The notes under the pieces were generated by a model. It made no database searches. It saw nothing but the letters and a program-made list of their open reading frames with translations, and had not been told where the DNA came from. From an uncultured Methanolobus sp. (GTDB lineage: Archaea; Halobacteriota; Methanosarcinia; Methanosarcinales; Methanosarcinaceae): a stretch of 64,000 bases of DNA. The stretch covers positions 32,001-96,000 of the forward strand of contig OY776215.1 of the NCBI GenBank assembly GCA_963675495.1, given 5' to 3'. This document shows, piece after piece, positions 1,350 to 24,650 of the stretch; the stretch's first letter is position 1; the number at the start of each line of letters is the position of its first letter. A program made the translations under genes and the position numbers.

Positions 1350-1485
1350 ATCATTCAATTGTATTTTTCAGATATACTTTTAGTGGTATTGTGGATTGTC
1401 TATGATCAGGGAAATGTTGAGGTTCATTGTATTACAATATAGTTCAGATCATAAACAATATTTTAAATGAGGATTATTCATATGA

Positions 1486-2223: not shown

Positions 2224-2273
2224 TTGATATAATCATACAGTCTACTTATAACACTGGCTATTATAATGCAGAT

Positions 2274-5200: not shown

Positions 5201-8200
5201 CATCAAAGTATAGTGTTGATGGGTCTGTCTTTTTAGTACTTTCGTCACTATATTCATTGTAAACCTTCCAAAAAAGGATTAATACATATTTTTCGTAATA
5301 AATCTTGTAATCTGATCTCAACCAGAACTCAAATGGGAAGTTGATGGTAGCATCAGGATAAACCCAAAGCTTTGCCTGATATTCTGTTTCTTTAGCATTA
5401 TCACGGTAAATGGTTGTACCTTCTGTAGTAGAACTATTGCTGGAAAGCGTATGTAAAGAACTGCACTCGTATTTAGGAATAATATAACTCTTTTTTAACT
5501 TTGTATCTGAAGCACCCAGTCCTTTTGTAATAATGCCTTTGTACTGACTTTCAACACATATACCGTCACCTTCGGTCAAGCCATTATCCTTATAATCTTT
5601 TATATGAACGTCAGTACTCAACATCTTCAGGTCTGCATCTGTGATCATATTTACTCCTAAAAATTTACCTACAATCCAGTCAATAATCATGTCGGACCAG
5701 CCTTTGCCAAAAATTATCCATGTAACAAGATCAGATAATAAAATAATACCTACGATGAGCCAACCAATGACAGGTATTAAACCTATAAAATACAAAGCAA
5801 GCGTGTATATTATCTTCAGGGAAGCATACAATCCTCCCAATGCAAAGCCATAGCCATTCCAGTTTTCTTCACAGGCTATCACAATCCATGCTATGATGGC
5901 CAGCCCAATATCCAGAACCATTCCAGCAATATCTAGTGCTTCCGCCCACCTGTTAAACTTCCCTGCCCATTTCATAATGGGGGTTTTGCCAGTGGACTTT
6001 ACACCTTTCAACTGTCCGTATATCCATGTAAAATCTCCCCAAGTAGACGAGATATTCGGCACAATATTACTCAATTTAATTGCACTGTACGCAGCTTGAC
6101 CAAAAACCATTAATCCAAGACATACACCCAATGATCCTATTCCGTAATAAGATATTGTAGAGATGACATCCAAAGCTTCCTTAAAAGCGAAATCCTGTTC
6201 AGAGTTGTCTGCTTTGGCAACACCTGTTTCCCCTGTCTCCCATATGATCATCAAAGCCATTGTTGTCGCAAGTGTTTTCTCATCAAGATAATCACCCCAT
6301 TCCTGAACTGCATACAGCATGTCTTCTGAATCAACGGATTTATCGGTACTGGTATTATACCAGGTCATCTTCATGCTTTTTGTAGTAAAAAGAGGCTGAT
6401 CTGTAAGGTCAATATCAAAACTGTTTCCTGAAGCGGATATTCCAGGATTTATATCATCCATTATACTGGTACGGAAATAATCTTCAAACAGAGCAATAAC
6501 AGGAAGTATTTCATCATCAGGTAGAGAAGATAAGGCATCAGGTGTCATCTCACCTGTAATTGTTGCCAGAGCCTCGTCCTGATGGTCTGCATAACCTAAC
6601 ATGGAGTTGATTGTCATATTGTAATCATTTTGTAGTTTCCCGGGCATCTGATCAAGAGCCGTCTGGCTTCTCAAAAAAGAATATGATAGAAGAATAGCCG
6701 ATTCAACTGTGCGGTTTATATTCTCATTTTTGTCCGTTTCTTCACTGAAGAATACCCCGAAATTAGTCCCATCGTTCTCTTCAACGCTAAAACCAGTGAG
6801 CATGAAGTTCTCGTTATATTTTGCTAGGGTGGTCGACACGGATTCATATTCATGAGTAAGCAACGTAAATGATTCCCATTCCTTCCTTTCATCTCTGTTT
6901 GCAATAAGTTCATTGCCTCCACCTCCCTCTGCACAAACATATTGTCCGCTAAAGGCTTTCAAAGCTATCCTGTTATCTTCAAGGTCAAGCAGTTCAAATG
7001 TAGCCACTTCATCGATATCGGTGCTGTTTCCTATCAGTTCTCCACCATCTGTTACATAAACGTATTTACCGTTCGATGTTTTCAGCGCAACTTCATTATT
7101 ATTCAGATAAACTATCTCAAAAATCTCGTTATTCGTGACAGATATACCTCTTGCAACAAGTTCTGATGTAGTAGCATCGACAGAAACATATTGCCCTTTA
7201 TTTGCTTGTAGTGACACTCTCTTTTCCCTGTCGGTCTGTCCTTTGACAATCCATACAAGTCTTGCCTGTGTAAAAGTATCGAGTGAAGAATTCTTTGGAT
7301 AGAACATACGACCATTCAAAGCAACTATATTTCCAAAGTCTTTCACAGGAGAAAGCGATATGTAAGCTTTGTCTAATGTGGTAACTATCCCATACTCTTC
7401 AAGTGCATTCGGGTCTGATGTGATTCCACCGACAAGCTCAATCTCCCAGAGTTGTTTGTCAGTTTCCTGAGATGAGTTCTGGAATATACACGTGTCATTT
7501 GTGGAATTTATTTCCAGGCATTTTTCACTGTGTTTGGAAATAAGTTTGTAGAAACCATCGTTGCCCAGTTCCAGTTCCCAGAGCTGATTATCCTCACCTG
7601 TATAGTTTCCTACAGTAACATTTGCCATGTCATCCAGACTTGAATTGAAAACTTCAAGACATTTACTATTGTTTTTGGAGATTATCCTATAATAGTTGTC
7701 ATCGGCAGACTCCAGCTTCCATAGCTGGTAATCTTCGCCTCTGTAATTATCTGTATTAACATTCACCTCACCATCAAGACTGCCATTATGGATCTGAATG
7801 CACTCACCATTGTCAACTGAAACTATTTTACAATCAACAGGTACTGTGAGCTCAAGCATTGGTGTGACGGTGACATCATCCTGCGAACTGTTGAGGTCTT
7901 TCATCGTTGCAAGGGAATCATCAGGCCAATCCCAGCTTTGGGCAAGCAGATTCAGATGTTCCGGATTTTCAGGCCTTATCTGGAAGTTCAGGTATGTGGG
8001 ATTTCCGCTTGATTGAATGTTGAAGTCAAAGCTCTCGTTTGATGCGGACCTTGAAAATGGTGATAGATCAAGGGCATCTATCACGCCGTCATTGTCATTA
8101 TCAAGATCCCAGGCATCTACAAACCCGTCTCCATCGCTGTCCTTGGAAGTGCCATTCACAATTTCAAAATAATCGGCAAGACCATCATCATTGGAATCAG

Positions 8201-8702
8201 CTTTCAGGGGATCAAGGTCGTTGTTTATTTCAAAGAGGTCGTCCAGTTGGTCAAAATCTGAATCCGTGTTATTAATGTCAGTTCCCAGAACCAGTTCTAC
8301 AGAATCAGGGATACCGTCACCATCTTTATCTGGACCATACTTTTCCTGACTCAAATTTATATCTGAAAAATTTGTCGCAAGCGCTTTAAGTTCTGGAAAT
8401 GATTCATTATCGTTTTCGTCACTTACATTAATTGGTATCGCAGCCATTAAAGCATCAATATCTACATCAGAATCGCGCTGGTTGGCAAAGGCAATAGATT
8501 GAGCTAAAGCATTTAATGCTGAAACTTCAGAGGGCGTTATAGTCGTTGATTCAATAGAGGAATTAGAAAAATAATTATCATTAGATGCAGCTAATGCCGG
8601 ATAAGCACTTGATCCTATCAGTAGTATAATTGTGCAGAATGCAAAAAGCTGAAGAGCTTTTCCGTGATAATCATTACATATCCTGGCTATTTTAGCAGCC
8701 AT
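2274..8702 (-). CDS. Giant (2142 aa) cell-surface protein: signal peptide, DxDxDG Ca-binding repeats, ricin-B lectin, fascin-like beta-trefoil, internal hydrophobic helices, C-terminal membrane anchor
   Basis: Many D(T/S)DxDGLxDxxE repeats; QLW repeats with SxKCLE (ricin B); VALKTSNGKYV, GQYVCAEGGG and WESF (fascin); HLSSFALAG; C-terminal PGY + TM + KRKR. Confidence 0.85.
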   Translation of the reverse strand: MAAKIARICNDYHGKALQLFAFCTIILLIGSSAYPALAASNDNYFSNSSIESTTITPSEVSALNALAQSIAFANQRDSDVDIDALMAAIPINVSDENDNESFPELKALATNFSDINLSQEKYGPDKDGDGIPDSVELVLGTDINNTDSDFDQLDDLFEINNDLDPLKADSNDDGLADYFEIVNGTSKDSDGDGFVDAWDLDNDNDGVIDALDLSPFSRSASNESFDFNIQSSGNPTYLNFQIRPENPEHLNLLAQSWDWPDDSLATMKDLNSSQDDVTVTPMLELTVPVDCKIVSVDNGECIQIHNGSLDGEVNVNTDNYRGEDYQLWKLESADDNYYRIISKNNSKCLEVFNSSLDDMANVTVGNYTGEDNQLWELELGNDGFYKLISKHSEKCLEINSTNDTCIFQNSSQETDKQLWEIELVGGITSDPNALEEYGIVTTLDKAYISLSPVKDFGNIVALNGRMFYPKNSSLDTFTQARLVWIVKGQTDREKRVSLQANKGQYVSVDATTSELVARGISVTNNEIFEIVYLNNNEVALKTSNGKYVYVTDGGELIGNSTDIDEVATFELLDLEDNRIALKAFSGQYVCAEGGGGNELIANRDERKEWESFTLLTHEYESVSTTLAKYNENFMLTGFSVEENDGTNFGVFFSEETDKNENINRTVESAILLSYSFLRSQTALDQMPGKLQNDYNMTINSMLGYADHQDEALATITGEMTPDALSSLPDDEILPVIALFEDYFRTSIMDDINPGISASGNSFDIDLTDQPLFTTKSMKMTWYNTSTDKSVDSEDMLYAVQEWGDYLDEKTLATTMALMIIWETGETGVAKADNSEQDFAFKEALDVISTISYYGIGSLGVCLGLMVFGQAAYSAIKLSNIVPNISSTWGDFTWIYGQLKGVKSTGKTPIMKWAGKFNRWAEALDIAGMVLDIGLAIIAWIVIACEENWNGYGFALGGLYASLKIIYTLALYFIGLIPVIGWLIVGIILLSDLVTWIIFGKGWSDMIIDWIVGKFLGVNMITDADLKMLSTDVHIKDYKDNGLTEGDGICVESQYKGIITKGLGASDTKLKKSYIIPKYECSSLHTLSSNSSTTEGTTIYRDNAKETEYQAKLWVYPDATINFPFEFWLRSDYKIYYEKYVLILFWKVYNEYSDESTKKTDPSTLYFDVLPDDIESFYTWTAISSNDIDGDDILNSDELSNGTSQLRWDTDNDGLSDKYEIDYGTIPVNGDTDGDGLEDGLELRYGYDPLEWDTDGDGLNDFEEHRGWDIEFEFYDETFEQHVWSSPLNNDSDDDGLSDLNEFLKGLNPQSGDTNGNGILDSTDLNFTAKAYISNVDLNGFGSSIKTDAETNITAVIDYTLIGKKNSTGNASACWLFVSLDNSTLHEEIYNGTPAIGNETYGSATLDFSAPNSTDVFALRFYQTWNISQPAPDEDDRNLIGVIDTLDYPARRAGWVSSGKDEDRDGLIDINEEIGWSVTIITNYTIDNYTSITNYTDIGNYAEIHTIDVTSDPRFKDSDFDGLDDHTECYLTMNSSSNPESSDTDGDGLNDFTEYYLGTNLTNFDTDGDALDDSTEIFFGSDSLIPDTDHDGLFDSAEFYLSSNPLKVDTDNDGLTDLEEVTFGSDLLKPDSDDDGLFDDLEMDYLSNPLVQDTDGDGLDDGYEVHGTGTSPLLKDTDFDGLTDFEELEMDTNPLSADTDRDGYNDSQEMNFTTNPLLEDTDGDNLNDSLDMDSLIPNVRNITVAYDLTEDNEELLDTLGMYTNITVYSADELLMNHSDEPCILLLGKPEKVNGTAGNITYDVLKDDGDILPRIIDSAYDRIAVRYGVWNSTQTVVMLSEPYMYDHCRILDAFRSKEVTTSGNSIMVEYKADKDIFVIDSVDSIKRTDSEIGVVLDSNVTPWIKLQKSGSSGNSLTSNSGLASGEYALDKYIDITVSENVENTSSDIINGASVKIYYRSSELDRNGDGDTSDNSDIDEDTLCIYYRNTGDKKWTKLSDTSINTENVELYGVNYEGYVQARISHLSSFALAGELNIEDDGPLDSDRDGLPNIVEYRMGTDPFNPDTDGDGIIDSEDAEPLTAFRTVLEDTDTGIETPPEETEIYPVPQEAPLTKNKSVPGYLMWLIFVVIILLLSYMVIFKRKR
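3520..5150 (-). repeat. Tandem DTDxDGLxDxxE...(T/S)NP calcium-binding repeats (thrombospondin-3/binary-toxin-like) within the giant protein
   Basis: Repeated units of about 23 aa in the translation; further copies near the N-terminus (about 8065-8340) and C-terminus; boundaries approximate. Confidence 0.8.
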
Positions 8703-12384: not shown

Positions 12385-13575
12385 ATGAGTGGAAAAATCG
12401 AATTGAACACGCCTTTAGAAAGTGATACAGCAGAACAAAAATCAATTGATGGAAATGATAAGCAATTCTTATGGCAAACTTCTACCGGTGAGCGTGTATT
12501 CCGCCATAATAATTCAATAATTATTGAATTACCATCGGGAAGAAGTACACTTACAACTTCATGGCTGAACGGTGGATACAGGGAAGACCTGAGATACATC
12601 TATAATCATCAGGTACTCCATGAGTGTGATGATTCACATGACACTGCATCTTTGGAGGGAGGGGACATATCAACTTATGCTTCAATAATCGCTGATAGAC
12701 TGGGATTGGAATCTGCATACTCCACCGGATTAATGACTGCAGCTAACATGCAAAATGTGGCAATATCAACTCATAGTTTCCGGGATTTAGAAGTAACAGC
12801 AGTCATCACAGGGGGAATAGAGATAAATGGGGGAAGAGCCGGAGACCCTGCTTCTTATTATCAGGAAGATGGACAGATCAAAATGATACCCGGTACCATA
12901 AACATTATTTTGCTCATCGGTGCCAATATCCCACACTACGCCATGGTAAATGCAGTTGTAACCGCAACTGAAGCCAAGACAGTTGCAATCCAGCAATTGA
13001 TGGCACAAAGTCAATATTCAGAAGGTATAGCCACAGGATCTGGAACCGATATGATAGCTGTCGTAGGCGATAAAACAAGTCCGATACATTTAAATGACGC
13101 TGGAAAACACTCCAAACTTGGAGAACTTATTGGAAAGTGCGTCATTGGAGCCACTCAAAAAGCACTTGCACAACAATCAGATCTTACTCCTCATTCCCAA
13201 TGTAATATGCTGGTACGTCTTGAAAGATTTGGTGTTGATGAAGATAAATACTGGAAAGCAGCTTCAGAAATGGAAGGAGAGAATCGCAAGGCTCAATTTA
13301 TAAGCGAACTAAGAATACTGGCAAAAAACCCTGGATTTGTTGCTACTACTTCATCTTTATTGCATATCGTCGATGAAATCGCATGGGGCTTGGTACCAGA
13401 AAAAGCCGGGAAACTGGCTGCATTTGCAACGATACGAGGAATTCCAGAAACACTATTAATAGAAGAATATCCTCCTTTTTCCAGGCTTCTCGATGAAAAA
13501 GATCCAATAATTGACAACTGGATACGTGTAACTGCATGGATTGCCAAAAATGGAATGTGTGGTGCACCTGAATGA
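12385..13575 (+). CDS. cbiZ: Adenosylcobinamide amidohydrolase
   Basis: TSWLNGGYR, GLMTAANM, VTAVITGG..NG.RAGDPA, GTINIIL, TATEAK, ATGSGTD, GKHSKLGELIG. Confidence 0.9.
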   Translation: MSGKIELNTPLESDTAEQKSIDGNDKQFLWQTSTGERVFRHNNSIIIELPSGRSTLTTSWLNGGYREDLRYIYNHQVLHECDDSHDTASLEGGDISTYASIIADRLGLESAYSTGLMTAANMQNVAISTHSFRDLEVTAVITGGIEINGGRAGDPASYYQEDGQIKMIPGTINIILLIGANIPHYAMVNAVVTATEAKTVAIQQLMAQSQYSEGIATGSGTDMIAVVGDKTSPIHLNDAGKHSKLGELIGKCVIGATQKALAQQSDLTPHSQCNMLVRLERFGVDEDKYWKAASEMEGENRKAQFISELRILAKNPGFVATTSSLLHIVDEIAWGLVPEKAGKLAAFATIRGIPETLLIEEYPPFSRLLDEKDPIIDNWIRVTAWIAKNGMCGAPE

Positions 13576-14015
13576 AAAAAGAAAAACCTTTTTATCTTTT
13601 CACTTTTATAAGCAGGCAATAAGCTATAAAGAAGGCTCTGTTGTTCAATGTGATCTCTCCTGGAATTGTCGCCTGATTTCCTATAGGATCTCGATAAATG
13701 AGACACAAAATTCCCACTAAAATCAAGTGCTTAAGACAAGTTTTCCATTAATTCAAGCGTTCTTTTTCATGAGTGTTTGCGGGCAGGTATAGCATGTATG
13801 TAGAAATTTTTATCCTTGTTAATTTGATTTACACCGCATGAAATTTCCAAAATATTTCTGTACATAATGAATATTACATGCTCATTTTTTTTTGTTTCTG
13901 TTAGGACGTTTTCTCTGGATTCTCATCATAATGGATAACATATGTAAATATAACACAATGCTTTTATACACATATCTAATTAGTTATTCTCTAAAGTGCT
14001 AACAAGGAAATTACC

Positions 14016-15092
14016 ATGCTAAAAAGAATTCCTATTATTCTGGTCGTTACATTTCTGTTGCTTGTATCAAATGTTCAAGCATCAGACAACAATACAGTGG
14101 AATACCCAATAACCATCACCGATTTATCAGGTGCCAAGATTACGATTGAAAAGGAACCAAGGCGTATTGTATCACTGATGCCAAGTATAACTGAAATATT
14201 ATTCACAGTTGGTGCCGGAGACAAAATGGTTGGGGGTACTGAAGATGACATGTATCCACCCGAAGCCATCAACCTAACTAAAGTTGGAAGGTACACTACC
14301 ATCAATTATGAAACGGTTGCACAACTTGAACCTGATCTAGTAATACTTGATGAAGCAAATGGGGAGGAAACGATCAAACGTCTTGAAGAGCTTGATATAC
14401 AAACCATAATCATCAATCCAAAAACAATAGATGAGATCATAGAAAGTGTCCTCATTTTAGGAACGGTCACGAATAACGGAGAAACCGCACAGGATATAGC
14501 CGATGATATGAGGCAGATCGTCAATGAAGTAAAAGAAAGTACCAGCGACATACCTGATGAAAATAAACCCAAAGTTCTTTATATAGTATGGGATAATCCG
14601 ATGTATGCGGCAGGAGCAAATACTTACCCGAATGACCTGATTTCCATGGCCGGAGGAAAGAATATTGTTGAAGCAAGTGACTGGCCAATCATTAACATCG
14701 AAAATGTCGTTGATGCCAATCCACAAATAATAATATGTTCCGGAATGGGAGGACTATCCTATCAAATAATGAACAATACAAAAAACAACGAAGCACTTGA
14801 AACAATAGATGCAATCAAAAATGATCGGGTGTATCCAATTCATGATCCTAACCTCATAGAGCTATCCGGTCCCAGGATAGTTCAAGGACTCGAAGAACTA
14901 AATCTATACATGGGGTCCAGATGGGAACAAAAAGATTATAAAATCCTGACCAATGCCAGTCAGACACAGGCAGATACTACAGACGGTGGAGCTGAAGATA
15001 ATGGAAAGACAGCTGCACAAGCACCTGGCTTTGAAGTTTTTTGTGCGAGCTGCATGTTGATTCTTGGATTTATTGTACATAAGCGATACTAA
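14016..15092 (+). CDS. btuF: BtuF-like cobalamin/Fe-siderophore ABC substrate-binding protein with PGF-CTERM anchor
   Basis: YPITITD, EPRRIVSLMPSITEILF, LEPDLVI, GPRIVQGLEEL; C-terminal APGF + TM + HKRY; follows cbiZ. Confidence 0.8.
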   Translation: MLKRIPIILVVTFLLLVSNVQASDNNTVEYPITITDLSGAKITIEKEPRRIVSLMPSITEILFTVGAGDKMVGGTEDDMYPPEAINLTKVGRYTTINYETVAQLEPDLVILDEANGEETIKRLEELDIQTIIINPKTIDEIIESVLILGTVTNNGETAQDIADDMRQIVNEVKESTSDIPDENKPKVLYIVWDNPMYAAGANTYPNDLISMAGGKNIVEASDWPIINIENVVDANPQIIICSGMGGLSYQIMNNTKNNEALETIDAIKNDRVYPIHDPNLIELSGPRIVQGLEELNLYMGSRWEQKDYKILTNASQTQADTTDGGAEDNGKTAAQAPGFEVFCASCMLILGFIVHKRY

Positions 15093-15120
15093 TACAGATT
15101 CAATATAAGGAATATTAAAA

Positions 15121-16284
15121 ATGCCTAAGTTAAATGGTTCCGTAAAAAGTTTGATATTTGCATTAGTTGCAATCCTTTTGGTCGTATTGGTTAGCAATAC
15201 TGCTATTGGAACCACTTATATACCGTCACTTCTGACAGCAAAGATAATCTACATAAACCTGCTTGAATTGATCGAAGAGACAATATCATGGGTAGCGTCA
15301 CTTACAGGTAATTCTCTCGAACTTTCTGATATTTTCAACAGGATTGCACCTGATCGCACATGGACCGATGGTCAGGAAATGATTATTGTAGGAATTCGGC
15401 TACCTCGCGTACTACTCGCTGCACTTGTGGGAGCAGCACTTGCTACTGCCGGGTGTACTATGCAAGGACTGCTGAAGAACCCACTTGCAGACCCTTATAT
15501 TATAGGAATGTCTTCCGGTGCAGCCCTTGGTGCAGCCATTGGTTTTACACTACTTTTACCAACGCAGTTGCTATCATTTATTGTTGCCACGATTACAATT
15601 TTCATCGTGTATAACATATCAAAAATTGGCGGAAAGGTTCCAGTAGATACACTACTTCTTGCAGGCATAGCAGTTGGTTTCTTCTTATCAGCACTGACCT
15701 CATTTTTCCTTTTTTTCTCGGAATCACTTCACCAGATAATCTACTGGATGATGGGAGGATTCTGGAATGCAAGCTGGGATAAAGTGAAAATTACAATGAT
15801 CATAGTGTTTGCAGGGATTGGATTATCCTATCGACACTCCTGGAACCTGAACGTTATGTTGCTGGGAGAAGAACAAGCTCAGTCCCTTGGAGTAAACATT
15901 GAAAGTGTAAAAAAGCAAATATTGTTGCTTTCTGCATTGATCACTGCTGCAGCAGTGTCTGTTAGTGGTATTATAGGATTTGTTGGCCTTATCATTCCTC
16001 ACATAATGCGCAACATCGTAGGACCGGATCATAGAAGCCTTTTGCCTGCTTCAACTTTGATGGGAGCTATTTTTTTGGTGATATCAGATACTTTTGCACG
16101 GACATTTCCTACCAAGATGCAGATGGTATTGGAGTCAAATGACATTCTGTTGTTTCAGTTAATACTTGAAAGGGTTGGATCCTTACAGGGAGTGGATCTT
16201 CCAGTAGGCATAATTACCGCTCTTTTTGGAGCTCCTTTTTTTATCTACCTTCTAAGAAAAAGGAGGAAAAGCATCTATGCTTGA
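15121..16284 (+). CDS. btuC: FecCD/BtuC-family ABC permease
   Basis: IRLPRVLLA, QGLLKNPLADPY, GEEQAQSLG, GIIGFVGLIIPH, LPVGIITALFGAPFF. Confidence 0.85.
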   Translation: MPKLNGSVKSLIFALVAILLVVLVSNTAIGTTYIPSLLTAKIIYINLLELIEETISWVASLTGNSLELSDIFNRIAPDRTWTDGQEMIIVGIRLPRVLLAALVGAALATAGCTMQGLLKNPLADPYIIGMSSGAALGAAIGFTLLLPTQLLSFIVATITIFIVYNISKIGGKVPVDTLLLAGIAVGFFLSALTSFFLFFSESLHQIIYWMMGGFWNASWDKVKITMIIVFAGIGLSYRHSWNLNVMLLGEEQAQSLGVNIESVKKQILLLSALITAAAVSVSGIIGFVGLIIPHIMRNIVGPDHRSLLPASTLMGAIFLVISDTFARTFPTKMQMVLESNDILLFQLILERVGSLQGVDLPVGIITALFGAPFFIYLLRKRRKSIYA

Positions 16285-17128
16285 AGCAAATGGTCTTGTC
16301 GTCAGCTACGGTAATCGTCAAATACTCAATGAAGTGGATCTCCATGCAGAACAAGGACAATTCGTTGGCATCATTGGTCCAAATGGTTCAGGTAAGACTA
16401 CCTTGGTAAAGACAATTAACAGGATCATAAAACCAAATGCTGGGGAAATAATAATCGATGGGCGATGTATTGATACGATGAATAACATTGAGATTGCAAA
16501 GAATATTGCCATGGTATCCCAGGTGATATCCATTAACTTCGAGTTTACTGTAGAAGATGTTGTCTTAATGGGTCGTACCCCATACATTAAAAGTGGTGAA
16601 ACACACGAAGATCTTGTAATTGTGCAGGATGCAATGGAAAGGACTAAAATACTTCATCTAAAAAATAGGTTTGTTACACAGCTAAGTGGTGGAGAATTAC
16701 AAAAAGTAATAATTGCCCGTGCACTTGCTCAAAATCCAAAAATACTGCTTCTGGATGAACCAACTTCTCACCTGGACATCACCAACCAGATAGACATATT
16801 GAATCTCGTAAAAGACGCTTCCAGAAAAGGAATGCTTGTCATAGCAGTCATGCATGATCTTAATCTTGCTGCATATTATTGTGACAAACTTTGCCTTATC
16901 CGGGATGGTGATGTAATATCAACCGGGACTCCTGGGGAAGTTCTGACACCGTCCAACATAAAGACCACATATAACATTGACGTGGAGGTTATCAACAATC
17001 AGATCACGAATTCTCTTTATGTCATACCTCTGTTGGAACCACTTGATAAAAACCCCGGCTTTTGCAAAGCGATAGAATGTTCGCATTCGTCTGCAGAATA
17101 TTTGTCATCAAACTCCACTCAGTTATGA
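16277..17128 (+). CDS. btuD: ABC ATPase, FecE/BtuD type
   Basis: GPNGSGKT, LSGGE, LLLDEPTSHLD, MHDLNLA; overlaps the permease stop. Confidence 0.85.
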   Translation: MLEANGLVVSYGNRQILNEVDLHAEQGQFVGIIGPNGSGKTTLVKTINRIIKPNAGEIIIDGRCIDTMNNIEIAKNIAMVSQVISINFEFTVEDVVLMGRTPYIKSGETHEDLVIVQDAMERTKILHLKNRFVTQLSGGELQKVIIARALAQNPKILLLDEPTSHLDITNQIDILNLVKDASRKGMLVIAVMHDLNLAAYYCDKLCLIRDGDVISTGTPGEVLTPSNIKTTYNIDVEVINNQITNSLYVIPLLEPLDKNPGFCKAIECSHSSAEYLSSNSTQL

Positions 17129-17168
17129 GTTTTTTCAACTTAATTGTCTCTGGTTATAATCTTGTATG

Positions 17169-17205
17169 TTATCTAAAACTATCTCATTATTTGTCATTTA
17201 GATAA
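17169..17205. promoter_or_regulatory. Inverted repeat between btuD and the DUF4430 gene (operator or terminator)
   Basis: TTATCTAAA-N19-TTTAGATAA, with outer GGTTAT/ATAACC arms. Confidence 0.35.
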
Positions 17206-17295
17206 TAAACATAACCAAATAGTGAACTTTATATGTAATTAATTTTAATGCTTGTTAATTAATTCATAATATGTCACATATAAAGAGGTATATAC

Positions 17296-18888
17296 ATGAT
17301 AAAAAAGATATGGGGTATAAGTTTACTTATTTTAGTTTCCTTGATGGTGATGCCATCACTGGCTGGAGCTGAAGCTACAGTCATCTGGGATGGGGAAGTT
17401 GATCTTAACGGAGGTATTTTTGACTACATTCCTGCATCAAACCAGTCTGCAAGTTATGAATGGTCAAGCCTAACGGATCTTGGTGCCCTTCAGACCGCAT
17501 CAGAAGCTGGTGGCTTTGAGATCAATTCAAGCGATCTTCATGCTGAATACGGTTCATTCTTCATCAACAGTATCGATGGAACCTCCAATGAAGAAAATTA
17601 CACATGGAGTATTCTGATAAACGATGAAACTGTATGGAATGGTTTGGGTCTTAACGAACTGAACGATGGAGATAAAGTTACATTTTACTATTTGGAGTGG
17701 GTTGTGGATGATGCAGGAAACTACGTAGCAGATGTAGAGAATGCTACACAGATGGTGAACATTAAAGTAAATGATGCAACTGTCATCTGGGATGGAGAAG
17801 TTGACCTTAACGGAGGTATTTTTGACTACACTCCTGCAGCAAATCCATCTGCAAGTTATGAATGGAAAAGCCTTACCGATCTTGGTGCCCTTCAGGCCGC
17901 ATCCGAAGCTGGTGGTTTTGGGATAAGTACAAGCGATTATCAGGCTGAATACGAATCATTCTATATCAACAGTATTGATGGAATAGCCAATGAAGAAGCA
18001 GGAGGATATTCATGGTCTATTCTGATAAACGATGAAACCACATGGAATGGTCTGGGTCGTAACAGCTTGAACGATGGAGATTCCGTTACATTCTGCTATG
18101 TTATGTGGATTGAAGAAAGTCCAGGGAACTGGGTAGCAGATGTGGACAATGCTGCACATATCGTGAGTGTTAAGGTAAATGATGTAACTGTCATCTGGGA
18201 TGGTGAAGTTGACCTTGAGGACGATACTTTTGATTACATCCCTGCATCAAATCTATCTGCCAGTTATGAATTGTCAAGCCTAACAGATCTCGGTGCCCTT
18301 CAGGATGCATCCGAAAAAGGTGACTTTGAGTTCGCTGCAAGTGATGATTATTATGCGACCTATGGTTCATTCTACATCACCAGTATTAATGGAATTGCCA
18401 ACGAGGGCAACTATTCGTGGTGTATTCAGATAAACGATGAGTTTACTACCTCCGGTTTAGGTGCTAACGACCTGAGCGACGGGGATACCGTGACCTTCTA
18501 CTATGCTGAATATGATGAAAATTGGGTGCAAGATATAGAGAATGCTTCATACAAGGTGAATATAGATGCCTCTGTAGCTCCTGAAAGTGAGGACGAAAGC
18601 AGTTCAAGTTCAAGCAGCAGCTCTAGGAGTTCAAGCAGTAGTAGTGGAATAGCTAGATCAACTGCTGTAGAAACTGTTGAAGAAGAGGAAACAAATGTTT
18701 CTGAAGAACCAGATACAGTATATTCAGTGATTGACGAAGAACCCGAAGAAGAACCAGAATCAATAGACCCAACTAAGATGTCTGTTGAATCTAATGTCGA
18801 TAGTGCAGCATCCCCTGGATTTGAAGCAGTATTTGCAGTAGCCGGATTCCTGCTTTCCGCTATTTTCCTTGCAAAAAGGAGAATGTAA
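17296..18888 (+). CDS. Surface protein with three tandem DUF4430 (transcobalamin C-terminal-like) domains, Ser/acidic linker and PGF-CTERM
   Basis: Three units of about 135 aa: VIWDGEVDL...LTDLGALQ.AS...YGSF.I.SI.G..N....W.I.IND....GL....L.DGD.VTF.Y; ends SPGF + TM + KRRM. Confidence 0.8.
   Translation: MIKKIWGISLLILVSLMVMPSLAGAEATVIWDGEVDLNGGIFDYIPASNQSASYEWSSLTDLGALQTASEAGGFEINSSDLHAEYGSFFINSIDGTSNEENYTWSILINDETVWNGLGLNELNDGDKVTFYYLEWVVDDAGNYVADVENATQMVNIKVNDATVIWDGEVDLNGGIFDYTPAANPSASYEWKSLTDLGALQAASEAGGFGISTSDYQAEYESFYINSIDGIANEEAGGYSWSILINDETTWNGLGRNSLNDGDSVTFCYVMWIEESPGNWVADVDNAAHIVSVKVNDVTVIWDGEVDLEDDTFDYIPASNLSASYELSSLTDLGALQDASEKGDFEFAASDDYYATYGSFYITSINGIANEGNYSWCIQINDEFTTSGLGANDLSDGDTVTFYYAEYDENWVQDIENASYKVNIDASVAPESEDESSSSSSSSSRSSSSSSGIARSTAVETVEEEETNVSEEPDTVYSVIDEEPEEEPESIDPTKMSVESNVDSAASPGFEAVFAVAGFLLSAIFLAKRRM
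17374..18570 (+). repeat. Three intragenic tandem repeats of about 400 bp
   Basis: Units start at about 17374, 17776 and 18184, each containing GTCATCTGGGATGG.GAAGTTGA. Confidence 0.85.
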
Positions 18889-18981
18889 TTAGTCTGCATA
18901 AAAAATGAAAATGTGTCGAAAAGCCAATAAAGAGCTTTACGACACCTTTTTTAAATTTTAATACAGGTTTAAGGTAGCAAA

Positions 18982-20334
18982 ATGGCTGGACAAAAAACAG
19001 TATTCTTATTTTTTTTGAGTGTAGTGCTATTCTTTTGTATCTTGTCAAGTGTTGTATGTGCTTCTGATTGGACCCAGTTTCAGAAAGATAAAATTAATTC
19101 CGGTGTTACAATAGATGAAGCACCTATATCTGACCCGATGACTGGAAATTCATTGTCATGGGAAAGGGAATTATCAACGGGTATCGACATTGCACCTATA
19201 GTTAATGGAAACTTCGTGTACGTGGCAACCGGTGGCAACAAAGTGTATGCTATCGATAAAAATACAGGGGACATTTCCTGGGAAAAATCTTCAAGTGGTA
19301 GTGGCTTTCTTCTTGCAAATATCGCTTACGGAAAAGGCATGATATTTGTTCCAACTAAAGATGGAAGTATGTTTGCTTTTGATGCAGAGACAGGAGTTGA
19401 AATGTGGAATGTCACGGTATCTACTAATCAACTGAATACGCCTATAACATACGATAATAATCGGATATTTTTTGGGGATTGCATAACTGGTGGCAGTAGT
19501 TCGTCAAACGATGGGATATACTATTGCTATGATGTGGAAGATGGTACCGAAGTCTGGAGTCGTGATTCTACCAGCAGTGGAGGTTACTACTGGGCAGGTG
19601 CAGCTGTGAAGGGGGATTATCTGATCTACGGTGATGACAGTTCGCATCTGGTCTCAGTTGAAAAAGATACGGGTAATACTATTGATGAACTTGATGTCTC
19701 TTCAGTTTTTAGTGTTAACGCAAAGGAGATTCGTTCTTCCATTGTTTTTAGCAATGACAAATTGTATTTTACATCAAAAGGTGGATATTGTTTTGCCCTT
19801 GGATTTAATGATAGCAGTGGTATGTTTGACAAAGCGAATGCTTACAATGGTTACATAGGCCCAAGTGTATCAACACCAGCTATCTATAATGAAAAGGTCT
19901 ATGCTGGAAGTGCCGGAGCTTTATCCTGTTTAAATGCAGCCGATTTAACAGACATCTGGATTTTTGCGGTATCTGGTGATGTAAAATCCTCTCCTGCTTT
20001 ATCGAAACGATATGATACAGGAAATGGGACCGTCTATATCTATTTTACAACAAATACTGAAGATGGGATGGTCTACTGCCTTAAAGATTACAATGGGAAC
20101 ATCGATCCTGTAGTACAATGGTCATATGGTGAATCGGGAAAAACAGACTGGTCTCTTGCAGGTGTAGCATTATCTGATGGATGGATATATTACGGCACTG
20201 ATACAGGTTATTTTTTTGGTTTAACAAACAAAGAAGCAGTATATGAAAACGATGGGAGTAGTAACAGCGATTCCGCAAACATCTTTTTCGTACTGGAGAA
20301 GCTTGTGGAAAAAATTTTGTTATTTTTGAGATAA
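18982..20334 (+). CDS. Secreted PQQ-like/BamB-type beta-propeller protein
   Basis: Signal peptide; DWTQFQKD..NSG; repeated AFDAETG..W, STPA, SSPA blades; ends in an amphipathic tail, no PGF. Confidence 0.8.
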   Translation: MAGQKTVFLFFLSVVLFFCILSSVVCASDWTQFQKDKINSGVTIDEAPISDPMTGNSLSWERELSTGIDIAPIVNGNFVYVATGGNKVYAIDKNTGDISWEKSSSGSGFLLANIAYGKGMIFVPTKDGSMFAFDAETGVEMWNVTVSTNQLNTPITYDNNRIFFGDCITGGSSSSNDGIYYCYDVEDGTEVWSRDSTSSGGYYWAGAAVKGDYLIYGDDSSHLVSVEKDTGNTIDELDVSSVFSVNAKEIRSSIVFSNDKLYFTSKGGYCFALGFNDSSGMFDKANAYNGYIGPSVSTPAIYNEKVYAGSAGALSCLNAADLTDIWIFAVSGDVKSSPALSKRYDTGNGTVYIYFTTNTEDGMVYCLKDYNGNIDPVVQWSYGESGKTDWSLAGVALSDGWIYYGTDTGYFFGLTNKEAVYENDGSSNSDSANIFFVLEKLVEKILLFLR

Positions 20335-20389
20335 AATTCTAATTAGAACTAAGTGAAGGCAGATGATTTGTATCAGGGATGAATGTATA

Positions 20390-22801
20390 ATGAACAAAAA
20401 GAGAATATCCAACAAAGCATTCATAGTTTTTTCATTTTTTATATTTTTAATTTCAATATCAACGGTTGCTACATCGTCCGATTGGTCCCAGTTCCAATCT
20501 GACTGTGAACATACTGCATTAACAGAAGATCCGGCAATTAGGGATGATCCTGAGCTTTTATGGAGCATTAGCACCTCAATATCTGAAGAAAATGGTATCA
20601 GTGCCCCACCTATAATTGCAGATGATCTTGTGTATATTTATACAACAAATGGTTCTATATGGGCCTTTAATAAACACAATGGGAATCTGGTCTGGAGAAA
20701 CAAAACAACAGAAGGAAGCAGACTTCAATCATCTACACCTGCCTATGGTAATGGAAAGATCTTTGTTGCCAGTAATAGTGGAGATATCTTTGCATTCAAT
20801 GGGTCGACAGGTGAAAAACTCTGGAATGAACGTGTAACTGACAGCAATTTTGAATGTCCAATTACTTATTCCGATAATATGTTATACATAGGGGAGGGAC
20901 TCGAAGGTGGGGTTGCTACCAAATATTACTACTGCTACGATGAGAATGGACAGCAGCTCTGGAAATATGCCAATGAGCGATCTGTAGGTTTTTTGTGGAA
21001 TGGTGCGTGCATTGTAGGAGATTTTGTTATTTATTCAACACATGAAGGTAAACTGGTGAGCCTGGATAAAGAAACCGGAGAACTTGTGGATGAGATTGAC
21101 CTTTCTTCTGATGTACTTGATTTTGCAAAGGACGACCCTGGAATGTTCCGTTCATCTGTAACATATAGCGATGGATTTGTGTATACAAGTTCAGAAAGAG
21201 GTCAGTCTTTAGGATATGTCTGGAAGATCGGATACGATGAAGGAAAGTTCCTCAATGATGGCTGGTGTACACAGAATGGTTTCAGCACATCAACACCAGC
21301 TATTTACGAGGGGAAAGTCTATGTTGGCCAGGGTGAACATGGTTACACAGGTAATCTCACATGTCTGGACGATTCTACCGGAGAGATTCTGTGGTCTTAT
21401 TTTATTGATGCAGGTGTAAAGTCATCTCCAGTTCTTGCAGTGGATGGAGATACGACGTATATTTATTTCACAGGAGCAAAAGACAACGGATCGCTTTATT
21501 GTCTGGCAGATGATGGTTCTCTTGCTTGGAAATATAATCCACATGATGATGGTTATATATTACAGGGTGCTGCACTATCTGATGGAAAAGTTTACTTTGG
21601 GACGGACAGTGGAGATCTCTATTGTATACAGGAAAATGTCCCGGAAGGGTGGGAGCAGTTCCATAAAGATGCTCAGAATAGCGGATTCTCTCCTTCTGAT
21701 GCTCCTGATACGAACAACACATTGTGGATCAGTGAAGATATAGGAGCAGTAAAGGGTTCATCACCTGTTAGTACCAACGGGAAAGTTTACGTGAACTGTG
21801 GTGATTACGTTAGTTCTTTAGATCAGTATACTGGTGAATTTTTGCAAAACCACAGTAGAGGTAGTACTAAATATAAATCAATAGCTTCTCCTGCCTACCA
21901 TAATGGTAGTGTATGGTGTGGTTTGCCAGATTCGGTTAACAGCGGCACAACAGTAGCAGACGGAAAATTATTCGAGGGTGAGTGGGATGGTAACTATTAC
22001 TGCTTTGATGAATTGACCGGAGTGGAGTTCTGGAATTTTAGTACTAATGGGAATGCACAGGCAACACCTGCGTATGAAGAAGGCAGGGTATATTTCACAA
22101 GCTGGGAATATGGGCAGACATATGGAGGGTATGTCTATTGCGTTGATTCAAATACAGGAAGCTTGATCTGGAATCAAAGTGAAATAATGTATAACTGCTG
22201 TGGTTCTCCAACGATTTATGGTAATACTGTTTATTTGACGTCCTTCAATTTTTATGGTGATGGTGAGATTTACGCAGTAAACAAGAACAATGGTTCCATT
22301 CTATGGAATAGGTCGATACTTCGGACGGATTCAACACCAGCTGTGGGATATGGCAACGTCTATGTTTGCGGAGGATGTTATGGGTATAGTGATCTGCAGA
22401 CATACTGTTTTGATGCAACTACTGGAAATCTCAAATGGAATACGACTTCTGGTGATGGAATTGGGGGATGGCTCTGTTCGCCTGCTGTTGCAGATGAAAA
22501 GGTATTTGTAGGCACTGCTTTTGATACAGATGATGATTATACTGGACTTAATGGTACGTGTGCTTTGGACGCATTCACAGGGGAATTGATCTGGAATTCT
22601 AAATATGGAGGCTCATCTCCAGCTGTTTTGGATGGAATGTTATTTACTATTGCAGATGGCAGAGTCTATGCTTTTGGTGATGAAGTAACTGCAGGTAAAT
22701 CAAATGAGAAATCACCTGGATTTGAATCTTCCATTGCAGTATCAGGATTGCTGATATCAGTCATTTATGTGTTGAGGAGGAAAAGGAACGAAAAGGGTTA
22801 A
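20390..22801 (+). CDS. Tandem double PQQ-like beta-propeller surface protein with PGF-CTERM
   Basis: Two propellers starting DWSQFQ and GWEQFH; many STPA/SSPA blades; ends SPGF + TM + RRKR; ATG at 20390 preferred. Confidence 0.8.
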   Translation: MNKKRISNKAFIVFSFFIFLISISTVATSSDWSQFQSDCEHTALTEDPAIRDDPELLWSISTSISEENGISAPPIIADDLVYIYTTNGSIWAFNKHNGNLVWRNKTTEGSRLQSSTPAYGNGKIFVASNSGDIFAFNGSTGEKLWNERVTDSNFECPITYSDNMLYIGEGLEGGVATKYYYCYDENGQQLWKYANERSVGFLWNGACIVGDFVIYSTHEGKLVSLDKETGELVDEIDLSSDVLDFAKDDPGMFRSSVTYSDGFVYTSSERGQSLGYVWKIGYDEGKFLNDGWCTQNGFSTSTPAIYEGKVYVGQGEHGYTGNLTCLDDSTGEILWSYFIDAGVKSSPVLAVDGDTTYIYFTGAKDNGSLYCLADDGSLAWKYNPHDDGYILQGAALSDGKVYFGTDSGDLYCIQENVPEGWEQFHKDAQNSGFSPSDAPDTNNTLWISEDIGAVKGSSPVSTNGKVYVNCGDYVSSLDQYTGEFLQNHSRGSTKYKSIASPAYHNGSVWCGLPDSVNSGTTVADGKLFEGEWDGNYYCFDELTGVEFWNFSTNGNAQATPAYEEGRVYFTSWEYGQTYGGYVYCVDSNTGSLIWNQSEIMYNCCGSPTIYGNTVYLTSFNFYGDGEIYAVNKNNGSILWNRSILRTDSTPAVGYGNVYVCGGCYGYSDLQTYCFDATTGNLKWNTTSGDGIGGWLCSPAVADEKVFVGTAFDTDDDYTGLNGTCALDAFTGELIWNSKYGGSSPAVLDGMLFTIADGRVYAFGDEVTAGKSNEKSPGFESSIAVSGLLISVIYVLRRKRNEKG

Positions 22802-22951: not shown

Positions 22952-24223
22952 TCACATTAATCTTTCACGCCTGCAAAGTAAAAGGATGAACATTGATATA
23001 CATAGAAGTAGTGAGCTATTCTGTGCAAGTTTTAATGAATCTGTATCTGTTGAAGATGAAATGGAGTTCTTTGAAAACTGGTCATTTTCTTTTTCATTTT
23101 CTTCCTGCGGAGTCACATCGTTGTCATTTTTCCTATCTGAAAGAGTTTCATTTATTGTAGTTTCAGATTGTACATCTGCAGTGATGGCAAATGGTGAGAA
23201 CCCAGGGGTTGTTGCTTCAAAGGTGATATAATCTTCACTCTCTCCAGTCATCTCAGTTTCAAGTGTTTCCCATTTTCCTTCATGGTACCTTTTCAGGTGT
23301 ATATTAGTTATTTCAACATCATTTTCCAGAATCCATTCTTTAAGGACTTCAAAAGATATTTTCATATCCTCCATATTATTTTCATTGGAATAGCCTTCTT
23401 TCCCAATCCATATATTGATGTTCTTGTAAATAATACCGTCTGGTTTTTCAGAGACCGTTGAAGATACATTTTTGAGCACTTCGATGGTGCTTGCTATAAA
23501 CCCTGCATTCTTCAATGATCTGTAACTAATGGAACTGATGGGATTTGCATTCTCGTCAAATAGATAAACGACTTCTGAGTCTCCGATAACATAGAGTTTC
23601 TCTATTTCCTTAATGCCAATATTCTCAATATTTTCGTCGGTATTGCCTCCCCCACCCCCAGCACCTGAGCTGGCAGTGGCTTCTTGAATTAAAGAGGATG
23701 AAACTTCGAGAATATTGACCTGCGCGTTCTGGATAGTTATAGGGACAATTTTTCCTTCAGAATCGCTTAACATCACATTGGAAAGACTAATAACGGTATT
23801 TCCTGTGTTATTGCTTGTAGTGAATGTGATATGGACAAAGTTTCCGGGGGTACTTATCTCAACCTGGCCAAGTGTTACGGCAAACAAACCGTTGATTTTT
23901 CCTTGTTGATTATCAACTGTTCCTCCAATAAAAATGGACATGGATTCTCCCTGTTCAAAGAATCCTTCATCACCGACATTATTTGCAGAGATCATATTAT
24001 TGTCAAATGAAATGTCCATTTGTGCACCGGCAATAGCTTGATCTGGTTCTATATTGATGTAGATATCGATATTCTGGTTTGCATATACTTCCTGAGTGGA
24101 TGGTGATATGCTAACAACGGAATCTGCCGATGCGGTCAGAATACAAGAATATACAAGTGTTAATACCAGGAAAAACAGCATTCTTTTCCTGTAAATATCT
24201 GATGGAATTTTTATTGTGTTCAT
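22952..24223 (-). CDS. Cohesin-domain + PGF-pre-PGF surface protein
   Basis: Signal peptide; VSISPS...IAGAQMDISFD...G.F..ITF......ISLSNV.LSD (cohesin); Gly linker; YKNINIWIG...FEA.TPGFSPFAIT (PGF-pre-PGF); C-terminal TM + basic tail. Confidence 0.8.
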   Translation of the reverse strand: MNTIKIPSDIYRKRMLFFLVLTLVYSCILTASADSVVSISPSTQEVYANQNIDIYINIEPDQAIAGAQMDISFDNNMISANNVGDEGFFEQGESMSIFIGGTVDNQQGKINGLFAVTLGQVEISTPGNFVHITFTTSNNTGNTVISLSNVMLSDSEGKIVPITIQNAQVNILEVSSSLIQEATASSGAGGGGGNTDENIENIGIKEIEKLYVIGDSEVVYLFDENANPISSISYRSLKNAGFIASTIEVLKNVSSTVSEKPDGIIYKNINIWIGKEGYSNENNMEDMKISFEVLKEWILENDVEITNIHLKRYHEGKWETLETEMTGESEDYITFEATTPGFSPFAITADVQSETTINETLSDRKNDNDVTPQEENEKENDQFSKNSISSSTDTDSLKLAQNSSLLLCISMFILLLCRRERLM

Positions 24224-24650
24224 CCTCACACCCAACAATTATTTAAAAACTGTATAATACCATATATATTTAAAGTTTGTTATTTTAATCAGGGTGCTTT
24301 AGCATTAAGGATTCTGACTAAACAGGAGCCGTTAAAATAAGTTAAAAAATTATCATTGCCAGTTTGCTGGTCAGTTAGGTTTAATTTTGTTATGGCCGCT
24401 GCTCTTCTAAAACAGTACTATTGCTGTCGAAAAGATGAACATGCTTATATATTGCATATATATATCAATATATTAATATAGTCTGTCTTGGAGCTAGCTA
24501 TTATTCACTGCATATTAAACGCTACTTTATGAAAACTGTTCCTAAATGATGTGCACTAATAGAAATTCAATAACTGTTTTCTGCAGGCGTGATTAGGGAA
24601 AAGGAACTAAAAACAAATCAAAGAAGCCGATTTGATGAAGGTAATTTACT

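Follow-up and report, generated by a model that had tools for sequence, protein, structure and literature searches.

A candidate corrinoid salvage locus with a cell-surface capture module in an uncultured Methanolobus

Introduction

Could a methanogen that makes its own corrinoids also gather them at its cell surface? This question is raised by a seven-gene locus of an uncultured Methanolobus sp. (GenBank assembly GCA_963675495.1, contig OY776215.1), which encodes a BtuFCD-type importer, a second member of the CbiZ family, and three secreted proteins with DUF4430 or propeller domains. Methylotrophic methanogens rely heavily on corrinoids, and anaerobic communities are shaped by the exchange of cobamides. 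To our knowledge, extracellular corrinoid capture has been described experimentally for animals and gut Bacteroidota only. The DNA analyzed here (the window) is a stretch of 64,000 nucleotides, positions 32001-96000 of a single-contig genome of 2.87 Mb, and coordinates without a prefix refer to it. An earlier note made from the letters alone had proposed that the locus encodes a surface corrinoid-scavenging relay running from the propeller or DUF4430 proteins through BtuF and BtuCD to CbiZ. We suggest, with a probability of about one half, that the locus serves the salvage of corrinoids (cobamides or cobinamide) by a BtuFCD-type importer combined with a cell-surface capture module. The domains, fold, anchors, and genomic linkage of the proposed relay stood up, whereas a likeness to Bacteroides BtuG, cobamide-specific repeats, and the adjacency of cbiZ to the surface genes in other genomes did not.

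Gene content of the locus

Seven open reading frames (ORFs), all on the plus strand, fill positions 12385-22801. The first, cbiZ2 (12385..13575), encodes a 396-aa CbiZ-family paralogue (adenosylcobinamide amidohydrolase family; PF01955, E = 7.1e-58). It is followed by three adjacent or overlapping importer genes, which encode a BtuF-like binding protein with a signal peptide (14016..15092; Peripla_BP_2, E = 2.2e-39), a BtuC-like type II ABC permease (15121..16284; FecCD, E = 1.1e-86), and a BtuD-like ABC ATPase (16277..17128; ABC_tran, E = 8.5e-34). The last three genes, called the cassette below, encode a 530-aa DUF4430 surface protein with three repeats (17296..18888; 99.7 bits against a Pfam cut-off of 23.8), a 450-aa secreted protein with a single PQQ_2/BamB-type propeller (Prop1, 18982..20334; PQQ_2, E = 3.1e-28), and, after a gap of 28 bp, an 812-aa protein with a signal peptide and two PQQ_2 propellers (Prop2, 20363..22801; PQQ_2, E = 1.5e-59 in 6 stretches). 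Signal-peptide-like N termini are found on all four non-cytoplasmic proteins. The ORFs and Pfam matches thus agree with the gene set described in the earlier note, a triple DUF4430 protein and three propellers on two proteins encoded in the same orientation as cbiZ and btuFCD, and the profile searches confirm its DUF4430 and PQQ_2 assignments. In the whole 2.87-Mb genome, an extracellular DUF4430 gene and propellers of this type occur at this locus only, which speaks for a specific cassette, as opposed to a single member of some abundant family of surface proteins. When contigs of runs X1 and X4 were compared with the region, one contig, which may be the source DNA itself, ran through all of it with no difference, and X4 covered it in short pieces.

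Conservation of the gene linkages

The linkage of these genes was followed in 93 stretches of up to 20 kb, many shortened by contig ends, which were fetched around DUF4430 matches; their ORFs were labelled by blastp and phmmer against the proteins of the window and of the fetched loci, and Pfam checks followed. Genomes are denoted by G numbers (G000 being the window's own genome) and fetched stretches by L numbers. The six genes from btuF to prop2 have their closest relatives in another genus, Methanococcoides. In L077, which is the same contig (193,641 bases) as L099, fetched again, the gene order is as in the window, and the products are 71% (BtuF), 85% (BtuC), 89% (BtuD), 47% (a DUF4430 protein with two repeats), 76% (Prop1), and 83% (Prop2) identical to those of the window. 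Orthologues of btuFCD (63-85% identity for BtuC and 69-89% for BtuD) share a stretch with DUF4430 and propeller genes at six loci in five other genomes from two other genera, namely four Methanococcoides genomes and G090, which represents a third genus. Their arrangement varies: btuFCD is divergent from the cassette in L071 and L097; in L039 btuF lies downstream of the cassette with a glycosyltransferase gene between them; and in L043 and L061, both from G090, the orthologous btu genes lie a few genes from the cassette. A linkage that has survived three different arrangements is the strongest argument for a functional coupling of importer and cassette. Within a few kilobases of the Methanococcoides btuFCD and cassette there are also a nicotianamine-synthase-like gene (L077:778-1641, plus strand) and cbiM/cbiQ (L099).

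The other junction, between btuFCD and cbiZ2, recurs in G024 of the window's own genus, where the order is btuF-btuC-btuD-cbiZ2 (70.5, 85.8, 82.8, and 74.5% identity, respectively). This cluster adjoins cbiC and a tetrapyrrole methylase gene, and G024 has no cassette. The cbiZ2-btuFCD and btuFCD-cassette junctions are therefore each conserved independently in other genomes, and the window is the most compact joining of both among the genomes compared.

Orthologues of cbiZ2 (65-80% identity) occur in 8 of the 33 same-genus relatives and in two genomes of another genus, and in the eight same-genus relatives they always lie beside a Peripla_BP_2/FecCD importer. All six same-genus relatives with a propeller-type cassette have cbiZ2, compared with two of the 27 without one (G024 and G137). 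The other same-genus clusters (L113:8305-17889, L111+L112, L106+L009, L109, L120, and L117) contain an ArsR-type helix-turn-helix (HTH) gene, cbiZ2, in some genomes genes for ChlI- and ChlD-like AAA+ proteins, and the Peripla_BP_2, FecCD, and ABC ATPase genes of an importer about 30% identical to that of the window; they continue with a NifH::NifD-like fusion (737 aa), a NifD-like protein (~430 aa), CbiK, and CobN. Its genes suggest that this cluster serves salvage or remodelling and includes a nitrogenase-like reductase. In G021 it directly abuts the DUF4430 gene (L009 and L106). In G019, G135, G009, and G006 its near end lies ~10-25 kb from the nearest cassette gene on the same contig, with ~28-45 kb from cbiZ2 to the DUF4430 gene and pilus-assembly and pilin genes between. 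Across these five contiguous same-genus assemblies, cbiZ2 is found ~15-45 kb from the DUF4430 gene, and the cluster lies between directly abutting the cassette and ~25 kb away from it.

Fold of the DUF4430 repeats

The surface protein contains three tandem DUF4430/SLBB repeats (17371-17772, 17773-18183, and 18184-18588), recovered by Pfam as three stretches and followed by an acidic, Ser-rich linker. The repeats are ~135 aa long and 61-73% identical in pairs (about 73, 64, and 62%), so they are recent duplicates and not strongly diverged; the earlier note had called them diverged. With a hidden Markov model built from the three repeats, 114 copies were found in the proteins of the fetched loci, from 1 to 7 per protein and from 2 to 6 in the propeller-linked relatives nearest to the window's protein. 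Neither this identity nor the range of copy number favours different cobamide preferences among the three repeats, and the number of repeats looks more like a matter of valency or reach than of specificity.

An alignment of 84 repeats (A1) contains one invariant Trp and nearly invariant Leu, Tyr, Asn, and Asp positions. The AlphaFold2 model of repeat 3 on A1 reached a pLDDT of 95.8 and a pTM of 0.90. Its top ranks in Foldseek are transcobalamin, intrinsic factor, 3u7z, and haptocorrin (E from 2e-3). In VIA-align, the beta domains of the three cobalamin carriers (haptocorrin, transcobalamin, and intrinsic factor) match the model with Z scores of 10.3-11.6 and a root mean square deviation of 1.6-2.0 Å over 88-89 residues at 16-19% sequence identity; the Z score is 9.6 for 3u7z and falls to 4.8 for the first chain unrelated to these. 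By plain sequence search, the DUF4430 protein had no meaningful match among solved structures. The A1 profile does find haptocorrin, though weakly (E = 0.037), and the invariant Trp of the repeats is then paired with a Trp of haptocorrin. The model therefore assigns to the DUF4430 repeat the beta-grasp fold of the transcobalamin beta domain, in agreement with the resemblance to the B12-binding domain pointed out in the earlier note. All ligand complexes solved among the fold matches are complexes with cobalamin. According to PMC5599065, the isolated beta domain of transcobalamin binds cyanocobalamin and cobinamide on its own, and PMC11107200 describes how the ligand first touches the beta domain, with closure of the alpha domain coming afterwards.

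Propeller proteins

Prop2 contains two propellers, at about 20471-21640 and 21650-22687. For the single propeller of Prop1, the model built on an alignment with 54 homologous propellers (A2) has a pLDDT of 93.8 and 33 strands. Its best structural matches in Foldseek are the designed protein Cake8 (TMt 0.86), BamB, YxaL, tetrathionate hydrolase, and PQQ- or lanthanide-dependent alcohol dehydrogenases; we take Cake8, BamB, and YxaL to be eight-bladed propellers. By its model, then, the Prop1 propeller is of the eight-bladed, BamB-like/PQQ type and not BtuG-like. According to passages of PMC13616437, BtuG and BtuK of Bacteroides are seven-bladed. The parallel with BtuG drawn in the earlier note is thus at most one of role.

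The presence of enzymes among the fold matches raises the alternative that the propellers work as secreted catalysts, for instance as dehydrogenases of a quinoprotein-like kind or as proteins like tetrathionate hydrolase, and have nothing to do with transport. The matches to the PQQ family PF01011 point the same way, but they are partial, covering one or two repeats only. The dehydrogenase model TIGR03075 reaches 59.5 and 109.9 bits against a cut-off of 480, which places both proteins outside the PQQ-dependent dehydrogenases, and the best folds are those of the non-enzymatic BamB, YxaL, and designed propellers. Since an enzymatic function would also leave unexplained the constant pairing or fusion of the propellers with DUF4430 and CobN, we consider it very unlikely.

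A complex prediction of Prop1 with DUF4430 repeat 3 (alignments A2 and A1) gave a score of 0.00, which is no answer and counts neither way. Prop2 is 83% identical over 810 aa to its Methanococcoides orthologue. Prop1 is ~175-225 aa shorter than its orthologues of 625-675 aa (625 aa in L077). These carry a C-terminal region with the motif TPGFSPF, presumably of the PGF-pre-PGF type, and three of the four orthologues compared also end in a PGF-CTERM-like tail; Prop1 of the window lacks the C-terminal PGF-type region and has no anchor.

Predicted surface anchoring

The other three secreted proteins end in tails of the PGF-CTERM kind. The DUF4430 protein (tail 18814-18882) scores 24.1 bits against a PGF-CTERM cut-off of 18.8. 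Prop2 (tail 22715-22783, reading SPGFESS...RRKR) scores 18.6 bits, just below that cut-off. The BtuF tail (~15021-15089) reads APGFEVF, followed by a hydrophobic helix and a basic end (HKRY), and the tails of its orthologues end alike. Archaeosortase A is encoded elsewhere in the genome (TIGR04125, 265.9 bits against a cut-off of 75). The motif, helix, and basic tail, together with the enzyme, make it likely that the tailed surface proteins are archaeosortase substrates, as had been proposed.

Importer and CbiZ paralogue

Peripla_BP_2, FecCD, and ABC ATPase genes are encoded together, which is the BtuFCD-type layout, and the B12-type models of NCBIfam are the top or near-top matches of all three products. 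The best match of BtuC is PRK09535 (vitamin B12 permease BtuC; 347.2 bits) and that of BtuD is PRK09536 (corrinoid ABC transporter ATPase; 275.5 bits). The nearest solved relative of BtuF is 5ysc, a "Vitamin B12-binding protein" (E = 8.6e-28), and E. coli BtuF scores ~1e-17. Orthologues are 68-71% identical for BtuF, 84-86% for BtuC (L077, L071, and L116), and 83-89% for BtuD.

The cbiZ2 product matches the CbiZ family over its full length (196.2 bits against a cut-off of 27; residues 49-256, profile positions 2-190 of 191) and has a C-terminal extension of ~140 aa to which no family was assigned. A sequence search against solved structures found no relative. The bifunctional CbiS (CbiZ plus alpha-ribazole phosphatase, NF038002) was rejected as a candidate, at 67.7 bits against 250 and over profile positions 3-265 of 335 only. 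The product is 61% identical to the other CbiZ of the genome (G000 1908049-1909179), and it is this distant copy that shares synteny with the only CbiZ gene found in most relatives. CbiD and CbiB are also encoded in the genome. This makes it very probable that the organism synthesizes corrinoids de novo, and the step accepting the CbiZ product is present.

Original work on Halobacterium is said to have established archaeal cobinamide salvage by CbiZ with BtuFCD. The window has CbiZ and a BtuFCD-type importer in common with the salvage systems of Halobacterium and Methanosarcina mazei, and it differs from them in that its CbiZ is a second, locus-specific paralogue and its importer is accompanied by an extra surface module. 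The salvage route, which re-enters synthesis at CbiB, is summarized in passages of PMC3541065.

Proposed route of corrinoid salvage

We propose that the tandem DUF4430 repeats, carried on a long acidic linker and tethered to the membrane through PGF-CTERM and archaeosortase A, would bind corrinoids outside the cell. The three eight-bladed propellers might serve the DUF4430 protein as co-receptors or scaffolds, a role suggested by their strict co-occurrence and by natural propeller-DUF4430 fusions. The ligand, presumably a corrinoid given the gene context, would then be handed to the PGF-anchored BtuF and imported by BtuCD. Inside the cell, the extra CbiZ may cleave off the aminopropanol or nucleotide loop, which would let incomplete or foreign corrinoids re-enter the organism's own pathway at CbiB. 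Because the organism very probably makes corrinoids itself, such a system would spare or supplement synthesis and not replace it.

Distribution of DUF4430 loci and alternative explanations

DUF4430 is found at E <= 1e-5 in 69 of the 268 genomes and 25 of the 44 genera of the class. The loci fall into four classes: 37 are propeller-type (16 genera), 19 encode fasciclin-DUF4430 proteins, 16 encode cytoplasmic ArsR-HTH-DUF4430 proteins, and 21 are other or uninformative. BtuF/C/D-type genes are present at nine of the propeller loci, CobN at eight, ExbB/DUF2162/DUF2149 at four, alpha/alpha-toroid genes at seven, and CbiZ at none. No locus of the fasciclin class contains any of these genes. A Btu-type importer, CobN, CbiK, or ExbB/DUF2162 is present at 18 of the 37, across 14 genera, compared with none of the 19 fasciclin loci; a random 20-kb stretch of the window's genome would be expected to hold such a gene in ~5% of cases, by a rough estimate from genome coordinates. 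The earlier note had named genomic association with btu, cbiZ, or cobN as a check, and such association was found: btuFCD accompanies it in other genera, cbiZ2 co-occurs with it in the genus, and CobN is linked or fused to it elsewhere.

A number of observations weigh against corrinoid salvage by the locus as a whole. The cassette is adjoined by cbiZ in the window only, and at none of the 37 other cassette loci. The co-occurrence of cbiZ2 with the cassette in the genus may reflect a single ancestral gain, since related genomes are not independent. BtuF (104.4 bits against 234), BtuC (cut-off 461), and BtuD (cut-off 537) all fall below the NCBIfam equivalog cut-offs. Prop1 has no specific likeness to BtuG, of which no chain is found among its best 50 Foldseek matches, and the single query used to look for an alpha/alpha-toroid partner in this genome returned none.

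Further points of this kind would fit a general surface or adhesion function. According to this explanation, the DUF4430 and propeller genes form a cassette for the S-layer or pili, and their place beside btuFCD and cbiZ results from island structure or chance. The same-genus cassettes have type IV pilins as neighbours, among them a tandem of four archaeal pilin genes, together with surface proteins of the PKD, CARDB, and NosD beta-helix kinds, and 19 of the 37 propeller loci show no importer or chelatase gene in the fetched stretch, many of these being short contigs. The propellers fold like BamB, a scaffold protein, dockerin domains occur on some homologues, and a cohesin protein adjoins the window cluster. 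The genes of the locus also look like separate transcription units. Oligo-T runs lie 3' of the cbiZ and btuD stop codons and TATA-like boxes upstream of btuF and the DUF4430 gene, all seen by eye; we therefore assume that the cluster probably comprises three units. A general surface or adhesion function leaves several findings without a ready explanation, namely the linkage to btuFCD that persists through three arrangements in two other genera, natural fusions of propeller and DUF4430 to CobN, the alpha/alpha-toroid gene (a counterpart of the transcobalamin alpha domain) at seven of 37 loci, and the importer or chelatase genes at 18 of 37 propeller-type loci, far above the rough random expectation and absent from the fasciclin type. 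We regard such a general surface or adhesion cassette as unlikely.

With respect to regulation, no exact 11-mer is common to the upstream regions of cbiZ2, btuF, the DUF4430 gene, prop1, the second cbiZ, and the HTH-DUF4430 gene, a comparison that covered exact matches of this length, and Rfam gave no match anywhere in the window at gathering thresholds.

Some of the surface proteins in question also carry assembly domains. A gene for a cohesin and PGF-pre-PGF surface protein is convergent to prop2 (22952-24238, minus strand), and dockerin domains end the DUF4430 and propeller proteins of L011 (7516-9886). These are a hint that, in some lineages, such modules are put together through cohesin and dockerin.

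The other serious question is the ligand. Five loci from five genera encode fusions of 1897-1942 aa that join a propeller to a CobN/Mg-chelatase domain (L011:1686-7424, minus strand; L018:4088-9781, minus; L067:5753-11476, minus; L074:8397-14225, plus; and L083:1874-7651, minus). A DUF4430 repeat was detected between propeller and CobN in L011, L067, L074, and L083, and none was detected in L018. In all five fusions the C terminus has a hydrophobic helix followed by a basic tail, and four have an obvious N-terminal signal sequence. The start codon of the L074 fusion was probably miscalled, since its product opens with an implausible, Arg-rich stretch and is hydrophobic at residues 92-110. L037 encodes a 1559-aa CobN with termini like those of the fusions (1115-5794, minus strand), whereas the stand-alone CobN proteins of L009, L025, and L034 have no signal sequence, helix, or basic tail. 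The fusions are thus predicted to be extracellular; they would tie the cassette to tetrapyrroles, leaving several tetrapyrroles possible. DUF2162, ExbB, and DUF2149 genes lie downstream of the L074 fusion, and in the window's own genome, far from the window, DUF2162, an ExbB-like gene, and four tandem CobN paralogues make up a single cluster at G000 961332-985434.

It is conceivable that the same surface architecture feeds the importer with some different tetrapyrrole or with a metal complex. Candidates would be heme, a nickel tetrapyrrole (F430 or one of its precursors), a metal-free corrinoid, and a metallophore for cobalt or nickel, and cbiZ would then be a neighbour with a role of its own. 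This explanation would account for the CobN class I chelatases at eight of 37 cassette loci, the CbiK and ExbB/DUF2162/DUF2149 genes, the predicted secretion of CobN fused to the cassette, and the nitrogenase-like reductases, ChlI/ChlD, CbiK, and CobN of the same-genus cbiZ2 clusters, and it is compatible with the nicotianamine-synthase-like gene and cbiM/cbiQ near the Methanococcoides cassette. The next-best solved relatives of BtuF are iron and heme binders. In 10.1101/864751, a split transcobalamin-like pair of Lactobacillus sakei is linked to heme uptake, and a passage of PMC1796856 raises the possibility that the archaeal versions take a different metabolite because these archaea make B12, as the CbiD of this genome would suggest here. 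Other observations speak against it: cbiZ2 is linked to this btuFCD in two genomes, in G024 together with cbiC; cobalamin is the only ligand in the solved complexes of the DUF4430 fold; the top solved relative of BtuF binds B12; and HTH-DUF4430 regulators adjoin cobalt uptake genes and CbiZ. We consider another ligand to be on the unlikely side, and a tentative alternative that deserves to be kept in mind.

These regulators form a class of their own. ArsR-HTH-DUF4430 proteins (~170-190 aa, with DUF4430 at the C terminus) are encoded directly beside cbiMNQO at seven of the 16 loci (L049:9661-13412, L019, L054, L056, L060, L072, and L095) and two genes from the housekeeping cbiZ at four (L017, L020, L021, and L023). 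In the window's genome, too, such a gene (G000 1910346-1910891) lies near the housekeeping CbiZ, at 1908-1911 kb. By this context they are candidate corrinoid- or cobalt-sensing regulators. The ArsR-HTH-DUF4430 class is among the predictions made in passages of PMC1796856.

A different picture is given by the fasciclin-DUF4430 surface proteins of 600-1700 aa (L084:8520-11048, minus strand, and 18 further loci), which have no propeller, importer, or chelatase gene nearby and lie in a conserved neighbourhood of MscS, CorA, and DUF432 in two Methanosarcina-like genera (g23 and g16). They are a separate subfamily, possibly with a different role.

A prenyltransferase/squalene-cyclase-like alpha/alpha-toroid gene (L034:10717-11754, minus strand) lies directly beside a DUF4430 gene (L034:9523-10545, minus strand), and toroid and DUF4430 genes share a stretch also in L026, L027, L029, L031, L074, and L075, from another family of the class. 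By analogy, this pairing would be a split version of the two-domain transcobalamin architecture. We speculate, and rather doubt, that in the window the propellers and DUF4430 together form a composite extracellular corrinoid receptor in which a propeller replaces the alpha/alpha-toroid half of transcobalamin, and that the secreted CobN fusions would extend this to extracellular tetrapyrrole binding or to metal insertion or removal. If so, this would be the first archaeal counterpart of the B12-capture relays of Bacteroides and mammals.

Comparison with known systems

The DUF4430 repeat has its fold in common with the beta domains of the mammalian carriers transcobalamin, intrinsic factor, and haptocorrin. 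The window protein differs from these carriers in that it lacks the alpha/alpha-toroid domain, contains the domain three times in tandem, and is predicted to be anchored to the membrane; in addition, each repeat has ~30 extra N-terminal residues.

The Bacteroides thetaiotaomicron relay (BtuB-BtuG, BtuH, BtuJ, and BtuK) likewise comprises several surface-tethered binders, including beta-propellers and small domains, that are encoded beside the importer, and its binders are sometimes fused (BtuGH) or combined with PKD domains, according to passages of PMC13616437. PKD domains are also carried by some homologues of the archaeal cassette. The two systems are not homologous. BtuH and BtuJ have other folds, and the Bacteroides lipoproteins feed a TonB-dependent outer-membrane transporter, whereas the window combines eight-bladed BamB-like propellers, a predicted SLBB/DUF4430 binder, PGF-CTERM anchors, and an anchored BtuF as acceptor at a single membrane. 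The hmu heme-uptake operon of Porphyromonas and Bacteroides reportedly encodes a surface binding protein, an importer, and the CobN-like HmuS together. It parallels the CobN-linked versions of the archaeal cassette; the window cluster itself has no CobN. We know of no report of an extracellular HmuS, in contrast to the archaeal CobN fusions, which are predicted to be extracellular.

A study of 2007 (PMC1796856) established the domain family as the transcobalamin-like clade of SLBB beta-grasp domains. It listed extracellular archaeal members, one Clostridium propeller fusion, and Methanosarcina ArsR-HTH fusions, and predicted that the extracellular SLBB/DUF4430 proteins scavenge B12 or its precursors. 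The window has the domain family, the extracellular location, and a neighbouring importer in common with the SLBB proteins of Burroughs et al. 2007 and with Lsa1839/1840 of L. sakei; the operons there use ECF/CbiOQ-type transporters, unlike the BtuFCD of the window. With this prediction at the level of the domain and with the well-studied Bacteroides relay, the cluster is not a new category. A search of open-access papers and bioRxiv found no experimental or genomic description of archaeal extracellular corrinoid capture, of a DUF4430-propeller cassette, or of secreted CobN fusions, nor one of the conserved triad with its two propeller genes, of a BtuFCD anchored through PGF, or of a CbiZ paralogue dedicated to such a locus. 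The remark in the earlier note that no experimental description in archaea was known to its author holds within that literature, and the concept itself dates from 2007 (PMC1796856).

The cluster is a compact candidate for such a system, with four small secreted proteins, a defined importer, a dedicated CbiZ paralogue, and orthologues in cultivated Methanococcoides. If corrinoid salvage is its function, organisms that produce corrinoids would also compete for, or recycle, external ones, and the transcobalamin beta-domain fold would be a B12 catcher across domains of life. It would also give a functional handle on many propeller and CobN surface proteins of Methanosarcinales and their ANME relatives.

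Other features of the window

Two further genes of the window are mentioned for completeness. Upstream of the locus, a gene on the minus strand (2274-8702) encodes a 2142-aa protein with matches to ricin-B lectin, fascin-like, and bacterial TSP3 repeats. Downstream, also on the minus strand (45855-48038), a gene encodes a fusion of glutamine amidotransferase, asparagine synthase, and DUF71 (diphthamide-synthase type), an architecture that is discussed in passages of PMC3541065.

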